From assembly GCA_018064365.1 (NCBI GenBank), contig JAGHVJ010000006.1:2058-66057 (forward strand): DNA of 64,000 bases, read 5' to 3'. The DNA is from Candidatus Enterousia onthequi. Lineage in GTDB: Bacteria; Pseudomonadota; Alphaproteobacteria; Rs-D84. Position numbers and translations under genes: made by a program. The notes below the pieces were generated by a model, which saw nothing but the letters and a program-made list of their open reading frames with translations, had not been told where the DNA came from and made no database searches. How positions within the stretch are numbered: position 1 is the first letter of the stretch; each line of letters starts with the position of its first letter. Shown here piece after piece: positions 12,909 through 55,947 of the stretch.

Positions 12909-15011
12909 TTGTATTATAATAAAGCCGTGAAATTAAATCTAGAAAATCTTAATCCTGAACAATTACGTGCCGTCCAAAAAACAGATGGCCCTGTTTTGGT
13001 GTTGGCGGGTGCGGGAACTGGAAAAACACGTGTTTTGACTACGCGCATTGGTTATATTTTAGAACAAAAATTGGCGTTTCCGTGGCAAATTTTGGCACTG
13101 ACTTTTACTAACAAGGCCGCAAATGAAATGAAATCCAGAATTGATTCAATGTCTGACGGTGAATTTATTGCCCGTGACATTTGGTGTGGCACATTTCACT
13201 CTATATGTTTGCGGATATTGCGTTCGAATTACGCAACTGTTGGATTGCGACCAGATTTTTTGATTTATGGCGAAGACGACCAAAAATCTGTTGTTAAAAA
13301 GGTTTTGAACGACCTGAATATTACAACTACAAAAAAGCCATCAGAATACATCGAAGATTTTTCCAGGATAAAGGACCGTGGTTTAACCCAAACACCGTCC
13401 ACAGACCGAATTTTTAACACGTATAACGATGAATTGCGTCGTCTAGGTGCGGTTGATTTCGGCGATATAATTTTATGTGTTTTGAATTTGTTTGAACAAA
13501 ATCCTGCGATTTTAGAGCGTTATCAAAAACAATTCAAATATATCTTGGTCGATGAATTCCAAGATACCAATGTCGCCCAGATGCAGTTGTTAAAATATTT
13601 AACACGTGGTAATGACTGTCCGAATATTTGTTGTGTTGGTGATGACGACCAATCTATTTACTCTTGGCGTGGTGCAGAAATAAAAAATATTCTAGATTTT
13701 GAAAAAACATATCCTGGCACTACTGTGATTCGTTTGGAAACAAATTATCGCAGTACAGGAAATATCTTGGGGGCTGCAAATTCATTGATACATCATAATG
13801 ATGATAGGTTGGGCAAAGATTTACACACGGTTGCAAACGGTGATGACGGTGAAAAAATATATGTGTTCACTTTATCAACCGATTTAGACGAGGCGAAGTT
13901 TATCGCCGACGCAATTATTAAAAATGGCCCGACATATAATGATAAAACAATTTTAATTCGTTCTGGGGCGTTATCTCGTTTGTTCGAAGAAGAATTTGCG
14001 CGTCGTCAAATTCCATATCGTTTAATTGGCGCAACCAAATTCTATGACCGTATGGAAATTCGTGATGTGATTGCGTATATTCGATTACTGGTGCATCCGT
14101 TTGATGATATGTCTTTTTTGCGTGTTATTGGAAAACCTCGGCGTGGTTTTGGGCCATCTGCAATTGAAAAAATGCGTGCGGCAGGCGATAATTTAATGGC
14201 TGGATTGCGTGCGTATTCGTTCCGTGGCAAACAACAAGATACCGCAAACGAGTTTTTATCAGTATTTGATTTTGATTGGGAAAATATGCCACCCCAGGAT
14301 GCTGTTAAAAAATTATTAGATTCATCTGGATACATAAAAATGTGGCAAGAATCCAAAGATGTTGATGCGCATGACCGTATAAACAATATTCACGAATTGG
14401 TAAATTCTGTTGTTGCAAAATACGATTCTTTGCATGATTTTCTGGAACAGGCGGCATTAATGATGACGGATGATAATGATGACCCAGATATATTAAACAA
14501 TAATGCCGTGAACATTATGACGATACACGCGGCCAAAGGATTAGAATTTGATAACGTATTCCTACCCGCTGTCGAAGAGGGTGTTTTTCCAAATGAAAAA
14601 TCAATCCAAGAAGGTTCTATCCAAGAAGAACGCAGACTTGCCTATGTCGCAATAACGCGTGCACGAAAATTTGTTGTTATAACTAATGCGATATCGCGCG
14701 TTATGTATGGCGAACGAAAATATAATGCTCCCAGCCGTTTTATCAGTGAAATAGATTCTTCATTTTTGGTGTTTGGTGATGATGTCGCACGTCCCACCAC
14801 ACGCCCGCAACCACATCACTATACGAATCAAACTTATGAACATAAAAAAAAGTTTGTTGCAGCGCCTCGTAAAACATTGGTTGGCCGTATGGCGCGTCAC
14901 AGTGAATACGGCACAGGTGTTATTATCGAAGAAGGAACCGGAATTTTAACAATCGCATTTGGGACGCGTGGAATTAAAAAAATTGCGCGTGATTTTGTGA
15001 CGGTTTTATAA
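12909..15011 (+). CDS. uvrD: UvrD/Rep/PcrA-family ATP-dependent DNA helicase
   Basis: LNPEQLRAV..AGAGTGKT (Walker A), DEFQDTN, TNYRS and TIHAAKGLEF motifs. TTG or GTG start. Confidence 0.9.
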   Translation: MYYNKAVKLNLENLNPEQLRAVQKTDGPVLVLAGAGTGKTRVLTTRIGYILEQKLAFPWQILALTFTNKAANEMKSRIDSMSDGEFIARDIWCGTFHSICLRILRSNYATVGLRPDFLIYGEDDQKSVVKKVLNDLNITTTKKPSEYIEDFSRIKDRGLTQTPSTDRIFNTYNDELRRLGAVDFGDIILCVLNLFEQNPAILERYQKQFKYILVDEFQDTNVAQMQLLKYLTRGNDCPNICCVGDDDQSIYSWRGAEIKNILDFEKTYPGTTVIRLETNYRSTGNILGAANSLIHHNDDRLGKDLHTVANGDDGEKIYVFTLSTDLDEAKFIADAIIKNGPTYNDKTILIRSGALSRLFEEEFARRQIPYRLIGATKFYDRMEIRDVIAYIRLLVHPFDDMSFLRVIGKPRRGFGPSAIEKMRAAGDNLMAGLRAYSFRGKQQDTANEFLSVFDFDWENMPPQDAVKKLLDSSGYIKMWQESKDVDAHDRINNIHELVNSVVAKYDSLHDFLEQAALMMTDDNDDPDILNNNAVNIMTIHAAKGLEFDNVFLPAVEEGVFPNEKSIQEGSIQEERRLAYVAITRARKFVVITNAISRVMYGERKYNAPSRFISEIDSSFLVFGDDVARPTTRPQPHHYTNQTYEHKKKFVAAPRKTLVGRMARHSEYGTGVIIEEGTGILTIAFGTRGIKKIARDFVTVL

Positions 15012-16292
15012 ATTGTTTTTTACAATATCGCGTGCTTGTTTCCAACGTTTTTTTGTAAGTTCCCACAATTTTTCTGTGTCTTTCTTTACTTTATCGCCCA
15101 GCCCAGATTCGATTTTTCCACCCCAATCAGAAGCCAATTTTTGTGATTTTTCCGCCATATAGCAAACCAACAACAGCGATAAAATCAACAATATTGCGCC
15201 GTCAAATCCGAACCCCGTCAACAGTTGTCCTGTATTTGGATTTACAACAAAAGTCAATAAAGATACAGATACACCTGTTGCCACCGCCAGACATACAAAA
15301 TAAATTGCTGCTTTGACAATGCGTGTAATTTGGGTTTCTAATTTTTCTGCTTTGAATATATCTAAAAAAGAATTAAATATATCCCCAGCAACACCCTTGT
15401 ACTGTGTTTTTGCGGTTGTTTCTGCAATCGCAGTAAACGGCAGCAATAACAAACTTAAAAATATATCTGCGATAACACCCAAGGAAATAAACAAATATTT
15501 CCAAATGTTTTTCAATGCCAAATATGTTATGTATAATCCAATAGCAGACGTGAATAAACTTGCGCCCACACCGGCAACAACCCATTTCCAACCAATTCCA
15601 ATAATCGTTGTAAAAAATGCAGACATTTGTGTTGGTATGCACAATAACCCAGCCGCAGAATCTGCGGTGATTTGCAGGTTTTCTGGTGCGCTGGTTGCGG
15701 CATATTGACGTATTGCTTCGCACGTGTCTGGCAGTTTATATCCCACAACACCAGTGATAGCATCCCATATTGTTGTAGCGATATATGTCCCTGCCGATAT
15801 AATTGGAACCATAATCGTAGTAAAAGCATGGGCAATTCCGAACTTTAATACAATCAACCACGCAGAAATAATCAAACCTTTTTTTAATATGTCTTCTACG
15901 GCTTTTTTTGCATCTCCACCAGAACCGATTAAATGATACGCTTCAAAAGCAATCAAAAACGCGTATGCAATCAACATAAACATAATTGCAAATGTTGCCA
16001 ATGAATTGTCCAATGCTACACCGACACGCGCCATACCGCCCATAAACGCCAGCCCTAATTTTGCCTCTATCGGAACATAACTGTGGGCAACAGTTGTGGC
16101 GGTTGGACCAAAGTTATTTAATTCGTCTACGATTCGACCGGTAACCAAAGAACGATTTTCTTCTGTTGCCCAAGTCCCATAATCACCAATATCCCCAGAC
16201 CCGTATGTTGTATCTGCAAACCCAGGCACTGCGATAAATATTGCAAATATCACAATTAAAATTTTTCGTAAAAAATCACGTGTTTTCATCAT
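15006..16292 (-). CDS. Polytopic membrane protein, member 1 of a 5-gene paralogous family, VirB6/TrbL-like by architecture (putative)
   Basis: Signal or TM at the N-terminus, 6 or more TM helices and a Gly-rich sequence. Similar to the neighbouring ORFs (..IVKAAIYFV.. vs ..VIKAAISVV..). Confidence 0.45.
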   Translation of the reverse strand: MMKTRDFLRKILIVIFAIFIAVPGFADTTYGSGDIGDYGTWATEENRSLVTGRIVDELNNFGPTATTVAHSYVPIEAKLGLAFMGGMARVGVALDNSLATFAIMFMLIAYAFLIAFEAYHLIGSGGDAKKAVEDILKKGLIISAWLIVLKFGIAHAFTTIMVPIISAGTYIATTIWDAITGVVGYKLPDTCEAIRQYAATSAPENLQITADSAAGLLCIPTQMSAFFTTIIGIGWKWVVAGVGASLFTSAIGLYITYLALKNIWKYLFISLGVIADIFLSLLLLPFTAIAETTAKTQYKGVAGDIFNSFLDIFKAEKLETQITRIVKAAIYFVCLAVATGVSVSLLTFVVNPNTGQLLTGFGFDGAILLILSLLLVCYMAEKSQKLASDWGGKIESGLGDKVKKDTEKLWELTKKRWKQARDIVKNNL

Positions 16293-17785
16293 GATATAAA
16301 TCCATTGTCATGCAATCTTTTTACCGCACCATCAAACCATTTGCGTGGTGCATGCCATGCCTTTTGCCCTAAATCGTGGGCCCATTTTCCGATGTCAAAT
16401 TGTTCGCCCGTTCCAACATCTGATTCTTCGCCTGGGATTGGCAATTTAACTTTGCCCGCAGGTAACAAAGCATCAACTTTTGGACTTAATACATAATAAT
16501 ATAACAAGAATAATCCAGCCATCAAAATCAAGAAAGACCACCCATCAGCCAAGAAATCAAATGCGCCTGGGTGTTCGGCTTCGATAATTTGTTTTTGTTG
16601 TTCAAAACAAGGTTTAAATAAATCTGCATCGACCAAACCGTCCGCATCTTTGGATTGTGCCTCGCATACAGAAAATGCGTTCATCACGGATTCTGCCGCC
16701 GGTGTTGTGTTTTGTGTGATTTGTGTTCCGAATAATGGTGGTAACACAGATGTATAACCGTCCACAGGACCTGGGAATGTCGCGTCCGCAGCATAGAAAA
16801 TAATCGCAAATAATAATGCAATTTTTAACGAAATAGATACAACTGAAATTGCGGCCTTGATAACCGTTTCTAATGATTTGCGGAATAATCCTGATGCTGC
16901 TTTCCATACTTTTTCATATGCCAACGCAGCAATTAAAATGGGCAAGAATATAATAACGAAAACGACTTTGAACAAAATCGAGAAAATTTGAAAGAATAAA
17001 TCAAATCCAATAACTAAAAATGCCAGAACCAAGAACAGCCCCGCAATCCATGTCAGCATACCGCCACCCAATCCCAGCCAAGCATAATTCATCAGTGCGA
17101 ATCCACCGGCGGCGCCTGCCAGCATAACAGAATATAAATTTCCAATAACGCACATAAATGAACCAGATACCGCGGCCATTGCACCAGATAATTGGGTCGC
17201 ACCCAAAATAACATTACAATCAGTTGCAGAATTTACACCCGTTGCTACCATTGATAGTGTAGAACCAATATATAAAATTGGCGAAATTAAAATTTCAGAA
17301 ATTACTTTCAAAGATGCAGTGCTATCCAAACTCAATACACCAATCGCAACACCTGCAATCATAATGCGCAACCCCAATTTCCATACTGGTTCAAACCAAG
17401 TTTGAAAATCTATATTATTTGCATTTGCGGTATATTCTGCATTTTTCTTTGATTTTTCCCAAACATATTTTATCGCAGAAATAAACATAAAAATCGCAAA
17501 TCCGGCACCCATTAAAATCCACAAATTGTTCACAATCCCAGACCAAAACATTTCAGATGCCACACCCAACATATCTAATAATTCAACGACATATTTTCCC
17601 AAAAATACAGTGCCGATATTTTCAATCCCGTTATCTGCGCCGATTGCGTGTATAAATCCGTCAACAGATGTATAGGTCAACGCAGAACCACCAATAGATG
17701 AAGATAAATACCAAATGCCCAACCCCAAGGCAACCACTATACCCAGTACTTTTAATCCCAAAGAAATCAATTTAAATTTCAGCAT
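16289..17785 (-). CDS. Polytopic membrane protein, paralog 2 (VirB6/TrbL-like, putative)
   Basis: Multi-TM. 4-nt overlap with the downstream paralog (operon). Confidence 0.45.
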   Translation of the reverse strand: MLKFKLISLGLKVLGIVVALGLGIWYLSSSIGGSALTYTSVDGFIHAIGADNGIENIGTVFLGKYVVELLDMLGVASEMFWSGIVNNLWILMGAGFAIFMFISAIKYVWEKSKKNAEYTANANNIDFQTWFEPVWKLGLRIMIAGVAIGVLSLDSTASLKVISEILISPILYIGSTLSMVATGVNSATDCNVILGATQLSGAMAAVSGSFMCVIGNLYSVMLAGAAGGFALMNYAWLGLGGGMLTWIAGLFLVLAFLVIGFDLFFQIFSILFKVVFVIIFLPILIAALAYEKVWKAASGLFRKSLETVIKAAISVVSISLKIALLFAIIFYAADATFPGPVDGYTSVLPPLFGTQITQNTTPAAESVMNAFSVCEAQSKDADGLVDADLFKPCFEQQKQIIEAEHPGAFDFLADGWSFLILMAGLFLLYYYVLSPKVDALLPAGKVKLPIPGEESDVGTGEQFDIGKWAHDLGQKAWHAPRKWFDGAVKRLHDNGFIS

Positions 17786-17798
17786 AATGATTTACCTT

Positions 17799-19004
17799 TT
17801 ACGACCTCATTTTCTCGATAATAATTTTAGCGGGTTTTTTGATATAGTTATTAGCAAATCCTTTTGTTAAATTCATTAAACTATCGCCAAATTCTTTGCC
17901 AACCGCATTGTCGCTGGCTTGGACTTGGAACATGCCCAAAACAGTCTTTGTAATATTTGGAATATTACTATAAATAAATCCTAGTACATAAACCAAGACC
18001 ACAACACTAATCAGTGTTAAATCGTTTATGCCCGTTTGATTTAAATCTGTTTCAAATACAGTCCCATCCATAATTGCAGCCAACAAAGTATCAAAGTTAT
18101 TTAGATTGCCGTCTGGGTCTGCAAAGAATTTCACAATAATCACCAAAATCACAGTGTATGTAATTATCGCCACCCCCAAAGATATTATAGCACCAACCAT
18201 ATTTTTTATCTGTTCAACACCGACCCCTTTGCCCAGGGATTTTATCCAACTCAACCAATATGGAACATCTGCTGATTCCTTAAATGCAGTGGTAACCAAA
18301 GATAACGGAAAGAAAAATGCAAACATCGCCATGGCGATAATAACATCTATGAAATAACACAAAAATTGGAAAAACATTTTGAAAAACGCCCAAAACAAAT
18401 ACACCCCGATAAATGCCAATAATAAATGTTTTATAAATGCCCCAATCCCCATAAACATAGCCCATGAAAACCCAGTGTCTAACATTGCGACGCCCAGTTT
18501 CATAAACGATTGAAACAAAGTAAGTGTGACTTTTGCGGTATTGATAATAGAATCACGTAATTCTTGTCTGAATATCCCACCAGAATCATCCATCGGTTGT
18601 GGGGTGTATTCAATGTGTTCTTCAATTTGTTCTGGGGTCAATTGTATCATAGCAGATGCATAGTTTTGTGTCACAATAGCCACCGGTTCAAAAGCCACCT
18701 GGGTTATAAAACGTGGCAACATAACCCCCATGCCCAAAAAAGTCAAAGCAAACAAAGAATTTATAAAAACAGGCCGTATAGATTTGTTAAACCAACCATC
18801 TTGAAAGCCTTCCTTCATGTTTTTCCAAACCGCACCAAAAATATAAAACGCAAATATTGCACAGAATAAAATTGTGCAAATAAGAACGAATTTAGGATAT
18901 GCCGCTGCAGCCGCATCTGACACAATTTGAAACATGCGGTCAAATATCGGACAAGACCAACATTGCGCAGTATTATCGATAAAGGATTGTGCCAAATTAT
19001 TCAT
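17799..19004 (-). CDS. Polytopic membrane protein, paralog 3 (VirB6/TrbL-like, putative)
   Basis: The N-terminal motif CWSCPIF before the first TM is shared with 20347..21669 (CWSCQIF). Confidence 0.45.
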   Translation of the reverse strand: MNNLAQSFIDNTAQCWSCPIFDRMFQIVSDAAAAAYPKFVLICTILFCAIFAFYIFGAVWKNMKEGFQDGWFNKSIRPVFINSLFALTFLGMGVMLPRFITQVAFEPVAIVTQNYASAMIQLTPEQIEEHIEYTPQPMDDSGGIFRQELRDSIINTAKVTLTLFQSFMKLGVAMLDTGFSWAMFMGIGAFIKHLLLAFIGVYLFWAFFKMFFQFLCYFIDVIIAMAMFAFFFPLSLVTTAFKESADVPYWLSWIKSLGKGVGVEQIKNMVGAIISLGVAIITYTVILVIIVKFFADPDGNLNNFDTLLAAIMDGTVFETDLNQTGINDLTLISVVVLVYVLGFIYSNIPNITKTVLGMFQVQASDNAVGKEFGDSLMNLTKGFANNYIKKPAKIIIEKMRS

Positions 19005-19006
19005 AA

Positions 19007-20284
19007 TTATCCCTTAAAAAATTTAACAACATTTTTCACCTTGCCAGGCACAGCCTTGGCCATGCCCCATGTTGTTTTTGCATCGCCTTTGACCTGGTTA
19101 TACAATGCGGTTGCGTCTTTGCCGACATATCCTGTCAATTTTTCGCGTGTGATTTCAAATATTTTATTCATTAAAAAGAAAGTCAATAAACAAGATAACC
19201 ATAAAACAGAATGCCCGCCAAATCCACTGGATAAAGAATCCATGCTTGGTAAATTAGAATACGCAACGCCACCCGCTGCTGTGACGAACATACGACTGTT
19301 CCATTGGAACAAAGCGCGCACCAATGCCAAATTTACACACAATATAAATGCACATGCAATCATTGTCACAACCATTTGTTTTAATGCAGTTATAATGCCA
19401 GAAAAAGCAGGCCATATATCAAACCAACTGTCGCTTTTTTTTGCAACCCATGCGGCCACACCAAAAGGATATAAAATCAAAGCCATACCAAAATTAAATA
19501 TCGTTTGAATAATCAACAAAGCCATAAATAAATTGCACCCCGTAAATGTTATAATCAACAAAATACCAGAAATAATATTCATAAAACCTTGACCGCTGTT
19601 GTGCGACATTAATGTGGTTAAAGTACGCAGTCCATTAGACAAATAAGTAAGCCCACGTTTTATTACAGTATTGTTTGCATGAGACAAAACATGCACAGGT
19701 TGAATTAAATATTCACAAGATTCTGTGTCCAACCAACCCTGTGCCATTAAATTTGATGGACATTGCACCGCGCGCATATCTTCTAAATTTACATCAGATG
19801 CAGCCTTCATAATTTCGGTAGTAAACAAAGAACCAAAACTTAAAAAAGGATTAATCAAATGTTTGGTCATAAAATCTGGCCGTAATGGCAACAAAAGTAT
19901 GGCCGCAACCAATACGCGTATTGCAGGTTTTGCAACATTGTTTGCGATTTTCATTCCGTCAGTATTCTCGATAGAATCCCCAGATTTGAATCCAAATGTG
20001 GACATCCAATATTTAGGAACAAATAATTTAATCAAATACAACGCGACATAAAATACAAAAAATCCCCATACTAATAAATAAATTATACCGTCGTGATTTT
20101 GCCCAACGAAATAAGCATAAGTCCCATTTGCAACAAACATAAATGCATCCAGTACAATAGGCACTAATTTTGAAATGTCCAAAGAATCAACATCAATCAG
20201 ACCCCATCCTGCCAACGCCACACTGGGCACGAATGAGCAGAACAATAAAGTGCATCCAATTAAAAATTTTTTAATACAATTCAT
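19007..20284 (-). CDS. Polytopic membrane protein, paralog 4 (VirB6/TrbL-like, putative)
   Basis: Signal peptide. Motif IRVLVAAILLLPLRP matches IRVLFVGALLLVPLPR in 20347..21669. Confidence 0.45.
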   Translation of the reverse strand: MNCIKKFLIGCTLLFCSFVPSVALAGWGLIDVDSLDISKLVPIVLDAFMFVANGTYAYFVGQNHDGIIYLLVWGFFVFYVALYLIKLFVPKYWMSTFGFKSGDSIENTDGMKIANNVAKPAIRVLVAAILLLPLRPDFMTKHLINPFLSFGSLFTTEIMKAASDVNLEDMRAVQCPSNLMAQGWLDTESCEYLIQPVHVLSHANNTVIKRGLTYLSNGLRTLTTLMSHNSGQGFMNIISGILLIITFTGCNLFMALLIIQTIFNFGMALILYPFGVAAWVAKKSDSWFDIWPAFSGIITALKQMVVTMIACAFILCVNLALVRALFQWNSRMFVTAAGGVAYSNLPSMDSLSSGFGGHSVLWLSCLLTFFLMNKIFEITREKLTGYVGKDATALYNQVKGDAKTTWGMAKAVPGKVKNVVKFFKG

Positions 20285-20346
20285 CTCTTATAATATTATT
20301 ATTGTAATTATAACATAAATCGATAAAATTATGTTATAATTAAAAT

Positions 20347-21669
20347 ATGAATTGGCTAAAAAAATTTTGGATAGTTTTTACATCTTTCTTGCCGTTTTCA
20401 GCAGGGGCTTTTTCGCCACTTTTAATTGGTGGAATTGCGTTTGGCGGTGGAATAATTGGGGTTTCTATTTGGCGCAATGTGTCCCCTGTAAATATGTCTG
20501 ACGCATTATCTTTTTTTTCCAGTTGTTGGTCATGTCAAATTTTTTCAGATGTTGTCGCAACAATGTCAAATATTATTCCTGTGACCTATAAATCTTTGGG
20601 TGGTATAATAATACCATTTGCAATTGTTTTGACAGCAGTATGGTTTGCGTGGCAATTATTGACATTGTTTATCACGCCCGGTCAAGATAAACAGATAAAT
20701 AATTTAGGGTGGAGTCTTGCAGGACAATGGGGAACTCATGTTATTCGTGTTTTATTTGTAGGGGCATTGTTGCTTGTTCCATTACCGCGAATGATTTCAT
20801 CTGTTGTACTGGAACCTGTGTTTAATATTGGTTTGTCTATGAATTATACAATGTCTGTGGCTGATGCTCGCCAGAACTATGCAAATTGCATAATTGCAAC
20901 TGCGGTCTCGGATGTGTCTGCAACCCGGACAGATACTGCAAATCCTGGTATAAATGCATTTTCACCGCGATTTCGTCATAACTTAACATGTCAAATTGCA
21001 AATATACATCAAATGACAGGTTTGGGAATGACAATTGGTTGGACAATGTTAAATATGGCGTTTAACTATGATTATATGCATAAATTGATGTGGGGAATAC
21101 CGATTTTTCCCAATGTGCCATTGATATTGACGGGGCTTTTGATATTGGCGCTGTATTTATCTGCATTATTGCCGATACCATTATATTTCTTGGAAATATT
21201 TATCAAATTATCTATTGATTTTGTTTTGTTGCCATTGACACTGTTATCGTGGATATTCAAAGGTTGGAAAATATTTCCGTCTGGCAAGGGAAATATAAAA
21301 CAAATCATAGATGATGTTATTTCTGGTGTTTTAGGTTTGGCAATGACGGGCATATTTATAACATTTTCAATAATGTTGTTAAATGCGGCTTTTGGTAATT
21401 GGAAAGGTGCATCTGCATTACAAACTGCGATTACCCAAAACGATTCGAAAATTTTAATAGATTCGTTAATGTCCACCACAGGCAGTAAATCTCTGATAAC
21501 CATAATATTGATGGGGATATTTATGACTATGTTTATGGTGATGATACCTGCATTGATAAAGTCGTTATTTAACATAACAGTATCTGATAAATACTATCAA
21601 ACCGCAAAAAAAGATATAAATTTATTGTGGAATGGCGCGAAAAAGTGGTGGTCTGCCGCAAAAAAATAA
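20347..21669 (+). CDS. Polytopic membrane protein, paralog 5, divergently transcribed (VirB6/TrbL-like, putative)
   Basis: Shares the CWSCQIF and IRVLF..LLLVPLPR motifs with the paralogs on the opposite strand. Confidence 0.45.
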   Translation: MNWLKKFWIVFTSFLPFSAGAFSPLLIGGIAFGGGIIGVSIWRNVSPVNMSDALSFFSSCWSCQIFSDVVATMSNIIPVTYKSLGGIIIPFAIVLTAVWFAWQLLTLFITPGQDKQINNLGWSLAGQWGTHVIRVLFVGALLLVPLPRMISSVVLEPVFNIGLSMNYTMSVADARQNYANCIIATAVSDVSATRTDTANPGINAFSPRFRHNLTCQIANIHQMTGLGMTIGWTMLNMAFNYDYMHKLMWGIPIFPNVPLILTGLLILALYLSALLPIPLYFLEIFIKLSIDFVLLPLTLLSWIFKGWKIFPSGKGNIKQIIDDVISGVLGLAMTGIFITFSIMLLNAAFGNWKGASALQTAITQNDSKILIDSLMSTTGSKSLITIILMGIFMTMFMVMIPALIKSLFNITVSDKYYQTAKKDINLLWNGAKKWWSAAKK

Positions 21670-25951: not shown

Positions 25952-26695
25952 ATGACACGCTATAAAATTGCATTAGAATACGATGGAACGAATTTAATTG
26001 GCTGGCAAGAAAACTTGGACGGCCCGTCTGTTCAATCTATTCTGATGGATGCATGCGAACAATTTTGCGGCTTGCGTCCAACTATATTTGGCGCAGGGCG
26101 GACAGATTCTGGTGTTCATGCAATATCTATGACTGCGCATTTTGATTTGGAACGTGATTATGATGCTGATACAGTTATGCGTGCATTAAATTTTTATTTG
26201 TTAAAACAGCCCGTATCGGTTTTGTCTTGCGAAATTGTTGATGAAGATTTTCATGCTCGCTTTTCTTGTGTTGCGCGTCATTATAAATATGTCGTGTTAA
26301 ATCGCGCTTCTGCGCCCGTTCTTGAAAAAAACAGGGTATATTGGTTTCCTCAAAAATTAGATGTTGAATCAATGCGTGTCGCTGCCAAAAAATTATTAGG
26401 CCAGCATGATTTTACATCTTTTCGTGCCGCCCAATGCCAAGCCAAAAGTCCGATAAAAACACTCGATAAGTTAGATATTACTGTTGATGGCAATCATATA
26501 ATTTTTGAATTGTCTGCACGTTCGTTTTTGCACCATATGGTTCGCAACATTGTTGGCACATTGTTAGAAATCGGTGTTGGTAAACCATATGATATTGATG
26601 AAATATTATCGGCAAAAAATCGCAGTACCGCCGGTCCCACCGCACCGGCATCTGGATTATATTTTATTCGTGCGGATTATCCCACCAACGACTAG
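25952..26695 (+). CDS. truA: tRNA pseudouridine(38-40) synthase
   Basis: YDGTNLIGWQ..GAGRTDSGVHA (catalytic Asp region)...HHMVRNIVG. Confidence 0.9.
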   Translation: MTRYKIALEYDGTNLIGWQENLDGPSVQSILMDACEQFCGLRPTIFGAGRTDSGVHAISMTAHFDLERDYDADTVMRALNFYLLKQPVSVLSCEIVDEDFHARFSCVARHYKYVVLNRASAPVLEKNRVYWFPQKLDVESMRVAAKKLLGQHDFTSFRAAQCQAKSPIKTLDKLDITVDGNHIIFELSARSFLHHMVRNIVGTLLEIGVGKPYDIDEILSAKNRSTAGPTAPASGLYFIRADYPTND

Positions 26696-28709
26696 TCGGT
26701 GTGTATTCTATTTTTCCAGATTTATAAATTACGAAACCATTACGCAAAATTTTGTGATTGCATTTTGGTCCAGATATATCAAAATACGATACGATAAAAT
26801 CAATGTCATCATCACGACATAATTTCACAATATTTTTATGCAATGGAACAAATTTTTGGATATACGCCACAGTGAAATTTTCGGATTTATAAATACAAAT
26901 GCCGTCTGGACATTTGCGCCGAACATTTTTATCAGATGGCGGTTCATTGTTTAATTGTCTAAATGTGTTAAAAGCAAAATAATGATTAGAAGCACGCGCT
27001 TTATTAAATTCTAGTTTACCGTCATACACCATGCCAACCAATTCGTGGTCGCTTGTTGCATAAAATACAGGCGTTTGTCGGGTCGCAATAATTATGACAC
27101 CAATTATAATACATACGCCAAACAATAAATAATTTGCACGACGATAAATCCAAAGTTTTGCTTTCATCAGTGGTTTTACCAAAATTAAAAACATCAAACC
27201 CAATACGAATATAACAAATGCACTTGTTGGAATATGCGGTATGATAATATTAGATGCAGGCCAATCAGCAATTTTCTGCGCGATTCCCAATGCAAAATTA
27301 TAAACAACCATTGCGTAATCTAATAACATATGAAAACCAAATCCAGAGCATAATGTTCCAATCAAAACCATGGGCATAATTGCAAACGAAAATATCGGCA
27401 GTAATATTAAATTGCCAACCAAACTATACAGTGGCACAGAATTAAAATGTGTTGCGATAAATGGCAATGTGAATATTGTTGCAATAACAGAGGTCATAAT
27501 TGCTGCATAAAATCCATTTTTTATTTTTTCTAAACGACTTTTGTTTTCAAAAGTTTGCCCGTCAAAAAACCAAATCAAACCAAATATAGCGGCAAAAGAT
27601 AATTGAAATCCTACCTGGGTTACGAAATGAGGATTTACAAAAAACAAAATTAAAAACGCGATTGAAATATTTCGCATAGACACAGCGTTTCGTCCCAATA
27701 ACAAAGCCAAAAATAACACAGTTGTCATCAAAAACGCGCGCCATGTCGCGACCCCGAATCCAGAAATGCAAACATATAAAAATAATATCAGCCACGCACA
27801 AATTGTTGCTGTATATCGCGCAGGAATTCGTCGTGTTAAAAATCCGCATGCGCGTAGAATAAAATAGAAAATTGCAAACAACCACCCACCAATCAAAGTC
27901 ATATGAAAACCACTGATTGACCAAATATGCCCAACACCTGCGGTTGTCCAAATATTGCTATCTGGGATTGGAACGGCATTTTTATAGCCCAACACCAAAC
28001 CGTCGGTTAAAAAAGAATTTGCCGCATTGTGAATTTTATTACGAAACCCGTTTACATTAAATGCATCGTCGTGCGACAAAATTTGATAATCTGTCATAAA
28101 TCCATTTGCAGTTAAATTATTAAAATATGCCCACCGTGCATAATCAAATGTTTCTGGTGCTTCGATTTTAGCAGGCGCAAACAAGAAAGCACGGCCAGAA
28201 ATTATATCTCCGATTTCAGGACGGTTTGTATCATCTGAAATTGTGACCCGAACATTAGCATTTTTTGCTAAATTTAAATCAGATGCATTGACTTGCAATA
28301 CCAACCTTGTTTTGTTATCTGATTCATCTATATCTATAACCGTAGCGGTAATGTTTTTATCGCGTACATCATATTTTAACACAGGTGTCCCAACTATAAA
28401 ATGCGTATAAAATATTGCATACGAAAACCCGAATATAAACAGCATAATGGCACGCAGAATCAAATTCTGTTTGTTAAATAGTAAAAGTATGATACTGACA
28501 ATAAACGCCAATCCGATAAATTTAATGTTTGGTTCAAATGGTAATATGAAATATAAACCTGCGCCCAATGCTAATAACATTGGCGACCATAAAAATTTAT
28601 TTTTTAATTGTTCTGATAAAAAATCACGCATGTATGAATTATAGGAACGAAAGTTCTGTGCGCAACCATTATTTTCCAAATATAAAATCAGGGTCAGCAG
28701 CCAAGGCAA
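26664..28709 (-). CDS. comEC: ComEC/Rec2-family DNA internalisation membrane protein (no beta-lactamase domain)
   Basis: N-terminal TMs, then a periplasmic OB-like segment, then a multi-TM competence domain (..GFQLSFAAIFGLI..). The start is uncertain. Confidence 0.75.
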   Translation of the reverse strand: MPWLLTLILYLENNGCAQNFRSYNSYMRDFLSEQLKNKFLWSPMLLALGAGLYFILPFEPNIKFIGLAFIVSIILLLFNKQNLILRAIMLFIFGFSYAIFYTHFIVGTPVLKYDVRDKNITATVIDIDESDNKTRLVLQVNASDLNLAKNANVRVTISDDTNRPEIGDIISGRAFLFAPAKIEAPETFDYARWAYFNNLTANGFMTDYQILSHDDAFNVNGFRNKIHNAANSFLTDGLVLGYKNAVPIPDSNIWTTAGVGHIWSISGFHMTLIGGWLFAIFYFILRACGFLTRRIPARYTATICAWLILFLYVCISGFGVATWRAFLMTTVLFLALLLGRNAVSMRNISIAFLILFFVNPHFVTQVGFQLSFAAIFGLIWFFDGQTFENKSRLEKIKNGFYAAIMTSVIATIFTLPFIATHFNSVPLYSLVGNLILLPIFSFAIMPMVLIGTLCSGFGFHMLLDYAMVVYNFALGIAQKIADWPASNIIIPHIPTSAFVIFVLGLMFLILVKPLMKAKLWIYRRANYLLFGVCIIIGVIIIATRQTPVFYATSDHELVGMVYDGKLEFNKARASNHYFAFNTFRQLNNEPPSDKNVRRKCPDGICIYKSENFTVAYIQKFVPLHKNIVKLCRDDDIDFIVSYFDISGPKCNHKILRNGFVIYKSGKIEYTPTSRWWDNPHE

Positions 28710-50552: not shown

Positions 50553-50897
50553 TTAATCAATCCAACCATTTTTGCGCGCAGCATTTTCAATAACTTGCAT
50601 GGCGCCGTTCCATAAATAAGCATCGTGATTTTCAGCCCAAATATATTGATGAGGTGCACGACGTTTGTCGCCAAATTTTTTCATCACTGCCAGTTGTTCT
50701 TCACTTAATCGGCCAGATAAATACAATTTTGTAATCATGGTTTCTACATCTAATAATTCGCAAATTCGACGAGTGCCCGGACGATGATGTTGCACCAATC
50801 CAGATTGAACAGATTTTGAATAAACAAACCAAAAGCACATCTGTTCCGCATTGTGAAATTTTTCCATATTGTCATGAGTATTTTGTAATGTATTCAT
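50553..50897 (-). CDS. Hypothetical small cytoplasmic protein (114 aa)
   Basis: Balanced composition, no motif recognised. Lies just downstream of virB10. Confidence 0.45.
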   Translation of the reverse strand: MNTLQNTHDNMEKFHNAEQMCFWFVYSKSVQSGLVQHHRPGTRRICELLDVETMITKLYLSGRLSEEQLAVMKKFGDKRRAPHQYIWAENHDAYLWNGAMQVIENAARKNGWID

Positions 50898-51115: not shown

Positions 51116-53596
51116 TCAATATACTTCGATTGGTGGAAAACAATCTCCGCTGCCGGCGGGGCAACATGCATACGGCGACTCAGAACCAGGTCCCATTTCC
51201 GTATAAACTTCGCCTGTGCAACAACCGTTCGCATCAGGTGACGTCCCATCTTCGCATAACAGAGTCCCAACCGTATCTGCCGCCGGTGCCGCCGGTTTTT
51301 CAAAAGGATTGACGATATTGCTGTTATCATCGTATTGCAATCCCAGAACCTGTTCGTTGTACTCTTGGGTTCCTTGGTTCAATGTTATGGCTTGTCCCTC
51401 ACTATCAACACCTTGGATACCTTGTGTTACTTTATTCTGATAATACGCATCATATTTTGCCTGGTTCACAGCCTGATAATTTTGTGCCTGGCAATACGCC
51501 AACACTGTTTTGTAATCATACCCAGATTTGCGTATCTCTTCTAATTTCCCATCATCCACGGTCCATACATCATTATCTTTCCGGGTGCAAAATTTTGATA
51601 AATTAAATCCACGTGATTGCCCCGTCCACGAAGAGTCGTCGGGGTTAACGGTTATCTCACCTTGCACATCTGACCATTTACGACGTTGTGCCTTGCCAAA
51701 TGCGTGAAATGCACATTTCTTACCCGCATTGGCACCAGCCTCGTCGTCTTCGCCACACGTCGCAACCAAATCAACCGGTGAATAAACCGTAATACGTGTT
51801 CCTGCGGCAATTGAAAATGGTGGAACGGTATTATCCAATGCATCAACTATCAATTTTTGTGCAACTTGATTCCATGCAGTAATAACCTCGTTTTTTGCCA
51901 ATTCTGATGAACGCACTTTTCCAGATTGCACAACTGTATTATTATCTAAATCAATTTGATTTACAAAAGTATCTGCAATTGGCGCAATCATATTTACCGC
52001 CGCCGGTATAACCGCCGTCAATAATGGCATAACCATTTGTTCTATGTAATCGGTACTACCATACCCCGGCACACCAACACGTCCTTGGGAATCCGCGGAA
52101 TATGGGTCTTGTTCTTTTGCGAAATTAAATTCCACACCGTCCGGACGAATAAATTGATACCAGTTTATCTCCATACGTCCAATAGACTTATATGGCCCTG
52201 GCAATTCGCCTGTCAAATACCCCATCAACAAAGTTCCTGTTGGAATAATAACTGTGCGCCCGTTATCAGAATAAACATTTCTATCTACCGTTGCACGCAC
52301 AGGAATACCTTTGCCACCCGTGCATGTTCCTCCGGCGTTTAAATTACATCCATATACAGACGGATCTGCACGAACATCAGATACAATTGTTGCCGGAATT
52401 GGTTTGAATTGACGTAATATAAATGTTCTATCATACGGCATACTGGAATACACAGATTCGTCATCCAAAGATGAACCTATCAATGCCTCTTTTTTTAATT
52501 CGTTTTTTGCAAAATTCAAAACCCCAGAACCTTCTTGTGGTTGCATTGTTTTTCTCAAATTTCCCATACCCTTTGGTACATAATTTCCCGATGTCGCAGG
52601 TGCGGCTACGCGTGTAGATTTTGAACGTAATTGAGGAACCGTATTAGTATTCACTGTTCCACTACGATGGTCGGCATCTGTCCCAATCTTTTTACGACCT
52701 TCGATACTGGTTATAATCCCTGTATCAGGATTATAAATACCGGTTGGACTATTACATTCTACGTCTGAAAAAGGATGAAATTCATAACGTCCAGCCTTTG
52801 GTTTTATCCAACCAATTTGTTCGCCCGACATATCATATCCCGGCATTGCAAAATCAGAACATTTTTCTGGTGCTTTACGACGTGGTGTTATTTCTTCTGT
52901 TGCGCCAAATATATTTCTATTACCACCAACAATCGGTTCAGGTTCTTCAAAATCATCTTCTTCATCAATCAAAAAATCATCTTCTGGAACGATTGGTTCT
53001 GGTTCCGAAATTGGTGCCGAAACCGGCTCTGGCTTTACAACTGGTTTTTGTTCTGGTTCTGGTTCTGGTTCTGCAACGCCACCTGTTGCACTAACAGGAA
53101 TAACGATTTTTGATGTTTTTAAATTAGTATTTTCCGTATCGTTTTTATCGTGCCATTCAACCAATAATGTTACGTTCCCAGAAACATTGCTATCGCCCGG
53201 AATAAATGTCACATCCACAGAACAAGGAATGTCTTTATTCACTGGTTTATTTGCACATCCAAATGTATTCGCAGAAAAACCAGATACAGAATCTTGTACA
53301 CTGACAGAATCAACAATCGCGTCATGTGTAGCATTGATTTTGAATTTTTGTGTTTGTTTTTGTCCAATCTTGGTATTAGAAAAATCAACATTTTCTGGCG
53401 ATATCACCAAATCAATATCGTAATCAGTTCCAACAACAGGCGCAGCCTTTTTTTTAGGTTGTCCAATCAACAAGAACAACAATATCAAAACGACAACAAA
53501 CGCCGCCACCAACAACAACCAACGAACTACGGGTGGCGTCGTATTAAATGCTTCTTGTATTTTTGTTTTTATTTTATCTTTCAGTGTATTTGCCAT
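51116..53596 (-). CDS. virB10: Type IV secretion system VirB10 (826 aa), with an N-terminal extra domain, a Pro-rich linker and a ~200-aa Cys-rich C-terminal extension
   Basis: N-terminal TM, PEPEPEQKPVVKPEP, and a TrbI/VirB10 barrel region (..RTFILRQFKPIPATIVSDV..VIIPTGTLLMGY..RMEINWYQFIRPDGVEF..GYGSTDYIE..). Confidence 0.8.
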   Translation of the reverse strand: MANTLKDKIKTKIQEAFNTTPPVVRWLLLVAAFVVVLILLFLLIGQPKKKAAPVVGTDYDIDLVISPENVDFSNTKIGQKQTQKFKINATHDAIVDSVSVQDSVSGFSANTFGCANKPVNKDIPCSVDVTFIPGDSNVSGNVTLLVEWHDKNDTENTNLKTSKIVIPVSATGGVAEPEPEPEQKPVVKPEPVSAPISEPEPIVPEDDFLIDEEDDFEEPEPIVGGNRNIFGATEEITPRRKAPEKCSDFAMPGYDMSGEQIGWIKPKAGRYEFHPFSDVECNSPTGIYNPDTGIITSIEGRKKIGTDADHRSGTVNTNTVPQLRSKSTRVAAPATSGNYVPKGMGNLRKTMQPQEGSGVLNFAKNELKKEALIGSSLDDESVYSSMPYDRTFILRQFKPIPATIVSDVRADPSVYGCNLNAGGTCTGGKGIPVRATVDRNVYSDNGRTVIIPTGTLLMGYLTGELPGPYKSIGRMEINWYQFIRPDGVEFNFAKEQDPYSADSQGRVGVPGYGSTDYIEQMVMPLLTAVIPAAVNMIAPIADTFVNQIDLDNNTVVQSGKVRSSELAKNEVITAWNQVAQKLIVDALDNTVPPFSIAAGTRITVYSPVDLVATCGEDDEAGANAGKKCAFHAFGKAQRRKWSDVQGEITVNPDDSSWTGQSRGFNLSKFCTRKDNDVWTVDDGKLEEIRKSGYDYKTVLAYCQAQNYQAVNQAKYDAYYQNKVTQGIQGVDSEGQAITLNQGTQEYNEQVLGLQYDDNSNIVNPFEKPAAPAADTVGTLLCEDGTSPDANGCCTGEVYTEMGPGSESPYACCPAGSGDCFPPIEVY

Positions 53597-53631: not shown

Positions 53632-55149
53632 TTATTGAATTCTAACCACGCGACATCCTGATACTTGGAATTTCATCAGTTTATCGCACAGTGTTTGAGC
53701 AGTGTCAATATCTTCCAATGGGCCAATGCGCAAGCGATACATCGTTGCACTGGATACACCAGAACCCAAATCACCAACGCCTTCGGTATCAATTGCAAAG
53801 AATACTTTATTTTGATATGGGGTTAAAATTCCAGCACCACCATCACCGCTGAATTTTACCAATAAATCGTTCCAATATTCTTCCAAAGCCTTGGGCGATT
53901 TATCAGAAGCAAACTCAACTGCAACACCAGATACACTAGATTTTATCAAAGGAATGTTTGATTGCGGTAAATATGCCCCCGCGGTTTCACGTGCTGTTGG
54001 AATCATTGTCGCACCCCCAGATACAGCCCCAGTCATCGCCGGCACATTATTGTATCCAGATTGCATATATGTCTCTGCACCCATCGGGGATACAGCGTTT
54101 GGCATATACATTGGTGTTGCGTTGTAATCCATTGGCGCACCATACATTGCAGCACTATTTGCGTCATATGCAATATTATTCAAAGATTGCCCAGACATCA
54201 TGCTTTGTGCAACATTTGCCTCGGCTAATGCCATAACAGAAGCCGTGTCTGCAATCAAGAACGGTTTTTCACGTTTTTTGATACAAACAATTCTTTGACC
54301 ACTGCGCAACACCATATCGCCAACCGCCTCGACAATCAACAGTCTCCCGTCTTGACCATCTGTCCGGAATCCAACTGGGGATTCGCCGCCTTCTATCAAT
54401 AATGATACAACAGGACGTTGAGTCATAGCGATAACCTTGTCCCCAAAATCAATGTATGTAAATATTTTATCGCGCCACACACGTTCTGGTGCAATAACAT
54501 AGTCATCTGGGTTTGGAACAAAAATATCCAAATCAAATCTGAATTCAGACGGGTCGATTTTCATAGATTTAATCCACGCATAATCTTCGCCATCTACACC
54601 AATAGTATTGGCTGTGGATGCAGGCTTTCTGAATATAGAATTCATACCACCAGATGTGTGCTGTGTTGTTGCCCCATTGGTTGCAATAGATGTCCCGTCA
54701 TCTAAAACAACATCTACTTGGGAATAAGAAATTTCGTCTGTATCAATCCCTTGGGGATTAGATAAATAGAATATATATTTGTTCCCTGATTGCCCCGTCA
54801 CAATCATATTTGTATCACTGGCGGCCCCATTTTCAGACATTGGTGTGACATAAAAAGTGCGATCGCCTTGGGTTGCCTCTATTTGATATAAAGACTGATC
54901 ACCAACCACCGCGTCGGCAATTTGTTCGCCGTTTGGCAGTGTGACCATCGTGACCATACCCATACGCAATTTTAATGGTAATACAGTTCCTTTGGACCAT
55001 GCCAATTGTGCGTACCCAGGTTTGGTACTGCCCACCGCCATATTCGCAGACGGATTTTCCCATGCTTTCTGTACTTCTGCATATGTAGTGCCAATCGACA
55101 TTAAAACCAACAAAGACACCAAACAGTTGATTTTCAAAAATTTTAACAT
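53632..55149 (-). CDS. virB9: Type IV secretion system VirB9 (505 aa), with a C-terminal low-complexity linker and a SPOR-like domain
   Basis: Signal peptide. VirB9/TrbG N- and C-domains (..IFTYIDFGDKV..RLLIVEAVGDMVLRSGQ). Tail ..YRLRIGPLEDIDTAQTLCDKLMKFQVSGCRVVRI. Confidence 0.75.
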   Translation of the reverse strand: MLKFLKINCLVSLLVLMSIGTTYAEVQKAWENPSANMAVGSTKPGYAQLAWSKGTVLPLKLRMGMVTMVTLPNGEQIADAVVGDQSLYQIEATQGDRTFYVTPMSENGAASDTNMIVTGQSGNKYIFYLSNPQGIDTDEISYSQVDVVLDDGTSIATNGATTQHTSGGMNSIFRKPASTANTIGVDGEDYAWIKSMKIDPSEFRFDLDIFVPNPDDYVIAPERVWRDKIFTYIDFGDKVIAMTQRPVVSLLIEGGESPVGFRTDGQDGRLLIVEAVGDMVLRSGQRIVCIKKREKPFLIADTASVMALAEANVAQSMMSGQSLNNIAYDANSAAMYGAPMDYNATPMYMPNAVSPMGAETYMQSGYNNVPAMTGAVSGGATMIPTARETAGAYLPQSNIPLIKSSVSGVAVEFASDKSPKALEEYWNDLLVKFSGDGGAGILTPYQNKVFFAIDTEGVGDLGSGVSSATMYRLRIGPLEDIDTAQTLCDKLMKFQVSGCRVVRIQ

Positions 55150-55173: not shown

Positions 55174-55947
55174 TTAATTTTCTTCTGCTTGACGAGTCCA
55201 ATTTAACGGGTCGTTTTGCTCTAAATCTAAAATATTGCCACCAGAATCGATAACATTATAATCACTGATTCGGAATCCCAATGGGTTTTCCATGCTTTCT
55301 GCCCATCGAACCGCATTTTTGGCATTAGATTCTAATTTTACACGCAATTTGTACGGCTTGCGATATTCCATATCGCCCAATGGCCCATATACGCAAATAT
55401 AAGTAAATGTCACATCGTAAGTGTCTGTGCTGTTCGTGACCGGGACCACAGAAAGTGTGGACGGATATTCAACAGAACACCGGATATCAAACGCTTCGTC
55501 TAAATCTTGACGAATAATATTTACCATATCTGTCATAACAAATTTTCCAAAAACCGAATCTGTTGAACGGGTTTTTACAACGCCAGTATCGTTATGCGCC
55601 CATTTTGCCCGCATTACCGCTAAATCAGGTACAATTTCATTCCGCGCAAGCACATATTCACGAATAAATTGCTTTTTATAGACATCTAAATCCATATCTG
55701 TCGGCATTTCGGTCAGTGTTAATTCTTTATCGCGTATATTTGTTGTGGTCAAGAAAAACACCTGGGGACGATTAAGAGGGAACATTTTTGCCAATGTAAA
55801 AACCAAAACCCCCAGCACAACCACAGCCGTTGCCAAAACAAAGGTCATCAGTCTGGATATTAAAATTGGCGGTTCTACGCGGTCTTGCAAAGGTTTTCTC
55901 CTCCCTTTTATTAAATGATTGTAGACAAAAGAATAACACATACGCAA
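55174..55947 (-). CDS. virB8: Type IV secretion system VirB8
   Basis: Cytoplasmic N-terminus, TM, NTF2-like domain. FIREYVLARNE and C-terminal NPLGFRISDYNV match VirB8 ..YVTARESY.. / NPLGFQVTSY. Confidence 0.8.
   Translation of the reverse strand: MRMCYSFVYNHLIKGRRKPLQDRVEPPILISRLMTFVLATAVVVLGVLVFTLAKMFPLNRPQVFFLTTTNIRDKELTLTEMPTDMDLDVYKKQFIREYVLARNEIVPDLAVMRAKWAHNDTGVVKTRSTDSVFGKFVMTDMVNIIRQDLDEAFDIRCSVEYPSTLSVVPVTNSTDTYDVTFTYICVYGPLGDMEYRKPYKLRVKLESNAKNAVRWAESMENPLGFRISDYNVIDSGGNILDLEQNDPLNWTRQAEEN

Follow-up and report, generated by a model that had tools for sequence, protein, structure and literature searches.

Does a VirB9 protein of Candidatus Enterousia onthequi carry a SPOR domain at its C-terminus, and would such a domain hold a type IV secretion system (T4SS) in the peptidoglycan? 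The question is raised by an open reading frame (ORF) on the minus strand of a 64,000-nucleotide stretch of this genome (assembly GCA_018064365.1, contig JAGHVJ010000006.1, positions 2,058 to 66,057), referred to below as the window. A preliminary description of the window had read the ORF as a VirB9 followed by a low-complexity linker and a SPOR-like, peptidoglycan-binding module, and had suggested that this module anchors the secretion system in the wall in a non-canonical way. We find that the protein is the VirB9 of the outer-membrane core in a VirB-type T4SS that Candidatus Enterousia encodes on its chromosome and inherits vertically, and that its tail is a genuine SPOR-homologous domain in which alignments place a glutamate at the position of the hallmark glutamine.

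The ORF (53632..55149, minus strand) is a single frame of 505 codons plus a stop codon, and its product shares 99% identity with NCBI MCQ2580744.1 and with a protein annotated in Candidatus Enterousia onthequi. The part to which the preliminary description referred (53632..54240, minus strand) comprises the codons for residues 304-505 and the stop, and the peptide strings quoted there are present. Pfam CagX (the VirB9/TrbG/CagX family, PF03524) matches residues 48-292 with 77 bits against a cutoff of 34.2 (E-value 2.2e-21), and the match spans profile positions 5-197 of 198, so that both VirB9 domains are covered. The protein is thus laid out as a VirB9 destined for periplasmic export, with normal N- and C-domains, a disordered tether of about 110 residues and a cysteine-pair domain belonging to an alphaproteobacterial SPOR subtype (Table 1). 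The full-length AlphaFold2 (AF2) model, built from 50 aligned sequences with a mean predicted local distance difference test (pLDDT) score of 62, contains a disordered stretch between the two VirB9 domains (residues 157-199) and a compact C-terminal domain at residues 408-504 with a core pLDDT of 75-82. Among homologs the VirB9 C-domain has 94-100% column identity, and conservation is lowest in the middle of the tether (residues 321-380). A linear motif at the distal end of the tether (residues 385-402) has R, T, A, G, L, P, Q, P and I invariant in the Enterousia alignment (A1) and is still recognisable in clades at 32-45% identity. The linker had been described as some 100 residues rich in Gly, Ala, Met, Tyr and Pro; this holds for its approximate length and for Ala (18%), Met (10%), Pro (8%) and Tyr (6%), along with Asn (8%) and only 9 charged residues in 110, but not for Gly, which is not enriched (7.3% against 9.4% elsewhere).

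The SPOR homology of the tail is solid because profile, profile-profile, pairwise and fold evidence agree, and this first claim of the preliminary description is borne out. Searched alone, the tail matches the Pfam SPOR family (PF05036) at 23.3-23.9 bits, above the 21-bit gathering score; all 25 orthologous tails searched match at E ≤ 0.01 (best 3.8e-7), and a precomputed PF05036 match accompanies 5 of the 120 listed homologs. The tail alignment was compared by hhalign with eight bona fide SPOR domains, namely those of FtsN (sequence verified against 1UTA), CwlC and a carboxypeptidase encoded in the window, together with the five domains of the multi-SPOR proteins P0153 (BON plus two SPOR domains) and P0157 (three SPOR domains), which gave a probability of 97.7% and an E-value of 2.4e-12 over the whole domain. 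A BLASTP alignment of the window tail with P0153 spans 93 residues with 34% identity (E 2e-9). In an exhaustive search of 1.84 billion representative proteins, the tail profile yields only 39 matches, most of them VirB9 proteins or VirB9 fragments, and it reaches P0153 and P0157, which themselves score 74 and 109 bits against Pfam SPOR, at E ~1e-4 (whole library). Leucine-rich repeat and other repeat proteins in the same search (P0133, P0135, P0141 and P0144) were rejected as spurious low-complexity matches. The AF2 model of the tail (mean pLDDT 66) adopts a β-α-(short α)-β-β-α-β topology, as in the RNP-like SPOR fold (β-α-β-β-α-β, with two helices packed behind a four-stranded antiparallel sheet), and Foldseek returns two RlpA SPOR entries as the only near-significant matches (E 8.6e-4 and 1.6e-3; target TM-score 0.74-0.75). 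The domain had been assigned to the last ~75 residues of the protein, whereas it occupies about 100 (406-505) because of insertions after α1 and between β2 and β3; compared with SPOR domains of the FtsN, RlpA and CwlC type, these two loops add about 25 residues.

The fusion is not confined to one assembly. All of the best 120 database homologs (66-99% identity, 438-518 amino acids) keep the tail. A scan of GTDB with one genome per species recovered more than 580 loci of relatives, and the best 80 of these, all from gut and rumen metagenome-assembled genomes (MAGs) labelled Candidatus Enterousia or unclassified Alphaproteobacteria, were inspected for frame: in 80/80 the frame is unbroken between the motif of the VirB9 C-domain and the stop after ...VVR[IM]Q. 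The architecture of CagX plus tail also occurs at 32-45% identity in other alphaproteobacterial MAGs, one of them labelled Rickettsiales, where the genes lie in virB8-virB9-virB10(-virB11) clusters beside ribosomal genes. In contrast, VirB9 matches from 72,556 plasmids end at query residue 290-296 in 18 of 18 cases. Given the intact frames, the recurrence in divergent clades and the plasmid VirB9s without a tail, the fusion is real, old and under selection, and it is restricted to certain host-associated Alphaproteobacteria; the tailed VirB9 is under strong purifying selection and vertically inherited. The possibility that virB9 and a SPOR gene were joined by a frameshift or an assembly error, which the preliminary description had raised against itself, was rejected and is virtually excluded. 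Nothing was found in its favour within the VirB9 set, and it would have to account for one frame in 80 of 80 species genomes, in 120 protein clusters and in divergent clades, for a junction that shows neither start codon context nor a gap, and for the 97-99% column identity within Enterousia of the adjoining segment (residues 293-320), which is not conserved in the divergent clades.

The only sequence that does resemble a chimeric scaffold end is unrelated to this set. It is a 450-residue ENA protein (P0154; L084, 8001..9353) that bears a tail of the glutamate type on an N-terminus other than VirB9. It was rejected as independent evidence for a role in the wall: it lies at a scaffold end with neighbours resembling those of Gram-positive or candidate phyla radiation genomes, and it is probably an assembly chimera because the GC content jumps, precisely across the tail, from 0.33-0.39 to 0.45-0.47.

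Crystal structures of the RlpA SPOR domain with glycan define the site against which the tail can be read: the contacts are mostly main-chain, and only the side chains of Gln270, Arg302 and Arg309 touch the glycan directly (PMC6895207). The glutamine in β1 is the only residue highly conserved among SPOR domains (RlpA Q270, FtsN Q251, DamX Q351), and it hydrogen-bonds the lactyl group of N-acetylmuramic acid (MurNAc) and the N-acetyl group of N-acetylglucosamine (GlcNAc) (PMC6895207). The MurNAc carboxylate is received by a basic patch formed by R302 and R309 and completed by R311 in RlpA, with R285 as the counterpart in FtsN (PMC6895207). In the VirB9 tail, the position of the conserved glutamine is taken by Glu412, which is invariant in the 121 aligned sequences used for residue counts and in 80/80 species loci; the divergent members in which β1 can be aligned also have Glu at this position, and Asp once. 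The glutamine is retained in 5/5 domains of the closest SPOR relatives outside VirB9 and in the SPOR of the DacA-type carboxypeptidase in the same window (GVQFGAF), and for this reason the change from Gln to Glu is specific to the VirB9-attached module, where it is strictly maintained. The basic patch is present as judged by alignment, R472 being found in 120/121 and R474 in 121/121 sequences, and Ser415, which corresponds to the glycan-contact position S254 of FtsN, is retained. Cys488 and Cys499 occur without exception, in 121/121 sequences as in all related SPORs that were recovered; Cys499 aligns with C312 of FtsN, whose disulfide has been linked to peptidoglycan binding (PMC6895207), and the two cysteines probably form a disulfide. 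The putative geometry of Glu412 relative to Arg472 and Arg474 is deduced from the alignment. With the hallmark glutamine replaced, the SPOR binding site of VirB9 is not canonical.

In solved canonical systems, at least 14 VirB9 C-domains make up the outer ring of the O-layer beneath the outer membrane (PMC12857230). Because the canonical ring has at least 14 copies, each machine would present many SPOR modules, as a skirt of at least 14 tethered SPOR-derived domains able to reach the thin peptidoglycan layer. These modules would most likely bind glycan strands multivalently, and such binding would fasten the outer-membrane complex to the wall or set its position there, for instance where septal or polar wall has been remodelled. 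That the tail binds peptidoglycan glycan through a modified site is the explanation that we favour, giving it slightly better than even chances. With the Arg pair intact but the conserved Gln replaced by an invariant Glu, binding probably departs from classical denuded-glycan recognition in ligand or in affinity, and the strict conservation of the carboxylate speaks for a chemical requirement and against decay. The glutamate site could be tuned to another glycan feature, one that offers a positive charge or a hydrogen-bond donor; in a de-N-acetylated sugar, for example, Glu could engage the amine. In RlpA-SPOR simulations, a canonical SPOR rejects de-N-acetylated glycan (PMC6895207). Alternatively, each domain may have low affinity, which would be offset by avidity. 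More tentatively, and with the balance of probability clearly on the other side, the VirB9 tail may represent a new 'E-type' class of SPOR specificity, in which an invariant carboxylate replaces the Gln common to all characterised SPORs. This class would read a different mark on peptidoglycan, such as glycan that is de-N-acetylated or otherwise edited; were the tail exposed, it could instead read a partner cell's wall.

Several observations weigh against glycan binding by a SPOR-derived tail. The whole VirB9 protein scores 20.0 bits against Pfam SPOR, 1 bit short of the 21-bit cutoff that the tail alone exceeds; the AF2 models are only moderate in confidence; and a sequence-profile search of the PDB with the tail returned no SPOR chain, only chance matches to antibody chains and designed trefoils. 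The last result is unsurprising because SPOR domains share less than 20% identity with each other, and the fold search resolved the case. A further point concerns function: in a 2024 preprint (bioRxiv 10.1101/2024.05.13.594014), the Q251E substitution in FtsN is reported to reduce septal localization and denuded-glycan binding, and by analogy the VirB9 tail may have little or no affinity for peptidoglycan. The same substitution bears most directly on the idea that the tail has an ordinary SPOR function, binding denuded (peptide-free) glycan like FtsN, DamX and RlpA and anchoring or targeting the T4SS to septal or new-pole peptidoglycan with Glu412 merely tolerated. Such a function would be consistent with the full SPOR fold and homology, with the retained Arg pair and Ser415, with a Cys pair that resembles the binding-linked disulfide of FtsN, and with the mostly main-chain character of the glycan contacts in RlpA; yet the sole highly conserved side chain is the one that has been altered, in the very way that weakens FtsN, and a tolerated Glu should revert to Gln somewhere, whereas it stands in 121/121 sequences and, apart from the single Asp, in divergent clades, with Gln kept by the closest non-VirB9 SPORs and by the DacA SPOR of the same genome. 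We regard this explanation as rather unlikely. Of the original proposal, then, the fused SPOR domain stands, and canonical wall anchoring by the tail is only partly supported.

The loss of the canonical Gln and the strict conservation of its replacement would also suit a SPOR fold repurposed for protein-protein contact, which would dock on a T4SS component such as the enlarged VirB10 or the product of the neighbouring orf114 and would not bind peptidoglycan, Glu412 pairing with a basic residue of the partner. The conserved linear motifs in the tether (residues 293-320 and 385-402) and the oversized VirB10 homologs of tail-bearing lineages (826, 733 and 2274 amino acids) point the same way. This reading is nevertheless quite unlikely: no direct evidence for any partner was found, the basic patch that contacts the MurNAc carboxylate is retained, and a long flexible tether is better suited to reaching a layer at some distance than to a fixed contact between subunits. 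Finally, the tail could lie outside the cell as an adhesin of a contact-dependent T4SS, attaching to glycans or to the cell wall of another cell, either a partner or a host. Members of Rs-D84, the order to which Enterousia belongs, have been proposed to live as obligate symbionts or parasites and to obtain metabolites from other cells (PMC12306168). In Gram-positive T4SSs, inactive homologs of VirB1 have been suggested to act as adhesins that bind the wall (PMC12857230), and a long tether with a disulfide-stapled domain would fit an exposed location. Against this, the VirB9 C-domain lies on the periplasmic side of the O-layer in solved canonical outer-membrane core complexes (PMC12857230), and neither the sequence nor the AF2 model indicates an outer-membrane-spanning segment after residue 292, which makes an adhesin highly improbable. 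Binding of peptidoglycan glycan through a modified site remains the explanation that we prefer.

Relative to the SPOR domains of E. coli FtsN, DamX and DedD, P. aeruginosa RlpA and B. subtilis CwlC, the tail has Glu for the hallmark Gln, and relative to the FtsN and RlpA types it is carried by a secretion ring subunit, in what would be at least 14 copies, and not by a division protein or a wall enzyme. Its closest relatives, at 34% identity over the whole domain, form an alphaproteobacterial SPOR subtype comprising P0153, P0157 and the DacA-type SPOR. The tail has in common with this subtype a Trp in α1, a long β2 region, the sequence YRL[RK]xGP and the Cys pair in LC..L....C.VV. The subtype keeps its Gln (VQLAS, LQLGS, VQFGA), and none of its members is linked to VirB9; the fused module probably evolved from this subtype. 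In the case of the canonical VirB9/TrbG/TraO/CagX proteins (PF03524) of minimised P-type T4SSs, the N- and C-domains, the signal peptide and the gene order virB8-virB9-virB10 are the same. The best plasmid relatives have 24-36% identity over residues ~18-296, and a canonical VirB9 ends right after the C-domain, whereas the Enterousia protein continues for about 210 residues, so the judgement that the architecture is unusual for a T4SS was sound.

Among the papers searched, none joins 'VirB9' with 'SPOR domain', a comprehensive 2025 review of T4SSs (PMC12857230) nowhere mentions SPOR, and the papers that combine T4SS, SPOR domain and peptidoglycan report no such fusion in their titles or abstracts. 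We thus found no earlier description of a VirB9 to which a SPOR-derived module is fused, here one whose SPOR site is also a natural variant with Glu, and automated annotation of the combination is sporadic only.

Wall anchoring had been attributed in the preliminary description to VirB7 and VirB1, which is inaccurate: VirB1 cuts peptidoglycan as a lytic transglycosylase, VirB7, a lipoprotein of the outer membrane, stabilises VirB9, and neither is a wall anchor. The real precedent, and the best functional analogy as a peptidoglycan-binding module tied to a T4SS outer-membrane complex, is DotK of the Legionella Dot/Icm system, an OmpA-like lipoprotein of the core complex that binds sacculi in a manner dependent on GlcNAc acetylation and promotes polar localisation (PMC10266036). 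DotK differs in being a separate lipoprotein with an OmpA-like fold, a stem-peptide ligand (meso-diaminopimelic acid) and a type IVB machine, whereas here a SPOR domain is fused to VirB9 in a system resembling type IVA. Other envelope machines carry wall-anchoring modules as well, including the OmpA-like extensions of TagL/TssL in type VI secretion, GspA/ExeA in type II secretion, TsaP and FimV (LysM) in type IV pili, and MotB in the flagellum. The principle of an appended wall-binding domain is the same as in the tailed VirB9, but the folds, ligands and machines differ. Type II and type VI secretion systems and type IV pili depend on peptidoglycan-binding proteins (PMC10266036).

Table 1. Coordinates of the virB9-SPOR gene, its parts and related features in the window (aa, amino acids)
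Feature	Position	Strand	Evidence or remark
virB9-SPOR gene	53632..55149	-	single ORF; Pfam CagX and SPOR
Sec-type signal peptide, aa 1-24 (MLKFLKINCLVSLLVLMSIGTTYA), no lipobox	55078..55149	-	read from sequence; AF2 helix 2-17; cleavage site putative
VirB9 N-terminal β domain, aa 41-149 (I-layer in canonical systems)	54703..55029	-	AF2 all-β, pLDDT ~85; inside CagX match
VirB9 C-terminal β domain, aa 207-292 (O-layer in canonical systems)	54274..54531	-	AF2 β-sandwich, pLDDT ~70
Post-domain segment, aa 293-320 (REKPFLIADTASVMALAEANVAQSMMSG)	54190..54273	-	short predicted helix 307-315, low AF2 confidence
Disordered low-complexity tether, aa 295-404	53938..54267	-	AF2 pLDDT 30-40
Linear motif upstream of SPOR, aa 385-402 (TARETAGAYLPQSNIPLI; core G-x-[YFI]-LP-x3-[IV]P-[LV]-[IV])	53944..53997	-	
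SPOR-fold domain, aa 406-505	53635..53934	-	β1 408-416, α1 419-434, β2 449-458, β3 466-478, α2 481-493, β4 500-504
Glu412 codon, position of conserved SPOR Gln	53914..53916	-	hhalign and BLASTP (VEFAS vs VQLAS)
Arg472-Leu-Arg474 in β3 (YRLRIGP)	53728..53736	-	register of FtsN R285 and RlpA R309/R311, by Gly-Pro anchor and hhalign
Cys488 (α2) and Cys499 (start of β4), putative disulfide staple	53653..53688	-	
virB8	55174..55947	-	Pfam VirB8 27.4 bits; upstream gene of operon; syntenic in 83/83 loci
virB10 homolog, 826 aa, enlarged at both ends	51116..53596	-	Pfam TrbI E 5e-15, TrbI domain only 400-608; syntenic in 82/83 loci
orf114, conserved 114-aa ORF	50553..50897	-	directly after virB10; tblastn match at same position in 70 loci
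PBP5/DacA-type D,D-carboxypeptidase with C-terminal SPOR	31100..32239	+	Peptidase_S11 E 4.5e-58; SPOR 309-377, 27.9 bits

The genomic setting of the gene is that of a resident locus. virB8, virB9 and virB10 are contiguous on the minus strand and diverge from tRNA-Trp, secE, nusG and rplK, and the order rplK-nusG plus virB8-virB9-virB10-orf114 is syntenic across the genus Enterousia. Because housekeeping genes (ppdK, uvrD, pyk, yidC, lpxD, tpiA, rpoB and others) surround the cluster throughout the 64 kb, whose GC content is about 39%, the virB locus is chromosomal and is not a plasmid or island fragment. Within the window, Pfam detects none of VirB4, VirB11, VirD4, VirB6, VirB2/3/5, VirB7 and VirB1. 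Upstream of virB8 there is no VirB7-like lipoprotein gene, only tRNA-Trp and secE, in contrast to canonical systems. Scattered T4SS loci are usual in Rickettsiales-type systems.

The neighbours of virB9 have features of their own. The C-terminal extension of VirB10 (~220 residues, of which 219 were tested) matches no Pfam family even at E ≤ 1, ends in a Cys-rich tail (...CEDGTSPDANGCCTGEVY...ACCPAGSGDCFPPIEVY) and is conserved as a whole across Enterousia. orf114 likewise matches no Pfam family even at E ≤ 1; it occupies the place that virB11 holds in classical operons and could be an uncharacterised T4SS accessory gene. In one divergent lineage with a VirB9 tail (L081, 658..2269), two VirB8 paralogs flank a 58-residue ORF that could be VirB7-like, and virB11 follows the giant virB10 in a Rickettsiales-like arrangement. 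The second SPOR domain reported for the window, on the PBP5-like carboxypeptidase, was confirmed; this enzyme is ordinary, since DacA of A. tumefaciens (Atu1505) has the same carboxypeptidase-SPOR architecture (PMC10838918), and it provides a useful internal control for the Glu variant.

Elsewhere in the window, five adjacent ORFs of 400-500 amino acids at 15006..21669 (four on the minus strand, one on the plus strand) are weak paralogs with hydrophobic N-termini. Their layout recalls the tandem VirB6-like arrays of Rickettsiales, although considered as hidden T4SS parts they match no Pfam family even at E ≤ 1. Two further weak paralogs of ~735 amino acids (6895..9102 and 9972..12182, both on the plus strand; 27% identity over ~200 residues) have signal-peptide-like starts and Ser/Thr/Asn-rich N-terminal regions, and they too match no Pfam family even at E ≤ 1. 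In addition, a ComEC-type competence channel (26664..28709, minus strand; Pfam Competence, E 4e-51) is encoded beside the T4SS genes in this strongly reduced genome.

The positioning of T4SS outer-membrane complexes relative to the wall is poorly understood, and DotK is the one worked example that we found. The tailed VirB9 adds a candidate in which the anchor is covalently built into the ring subunit itself. Its conservation in the 80 inspected species-level genomes of this uncultured lineage, together with its recurrence in related ones, speaks for an important part in the machine. The tail also amounts to a natural experiment on SPOR domains, in that the laboratory change that disables binding by FtsN (Q251E) is the fixed, selected state of the VirB9 tail. 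If the tail did define an E-type specificity, a lineage thought to live off other cells would be coupling the placement and timing of its T4SS to the editing of cell walls. Enterousia genomes are smaller than 1 Mb and lack most biosynthesis, and their bearers have been proposed to depend on partners, in a genome paper that does not mention secretion systems (PMC12306168). For Enterousia and Rs-D84, a T4SS with a tailed VirB9 and an oversized VirB10 is thus a candidate apparatus for that interaction.

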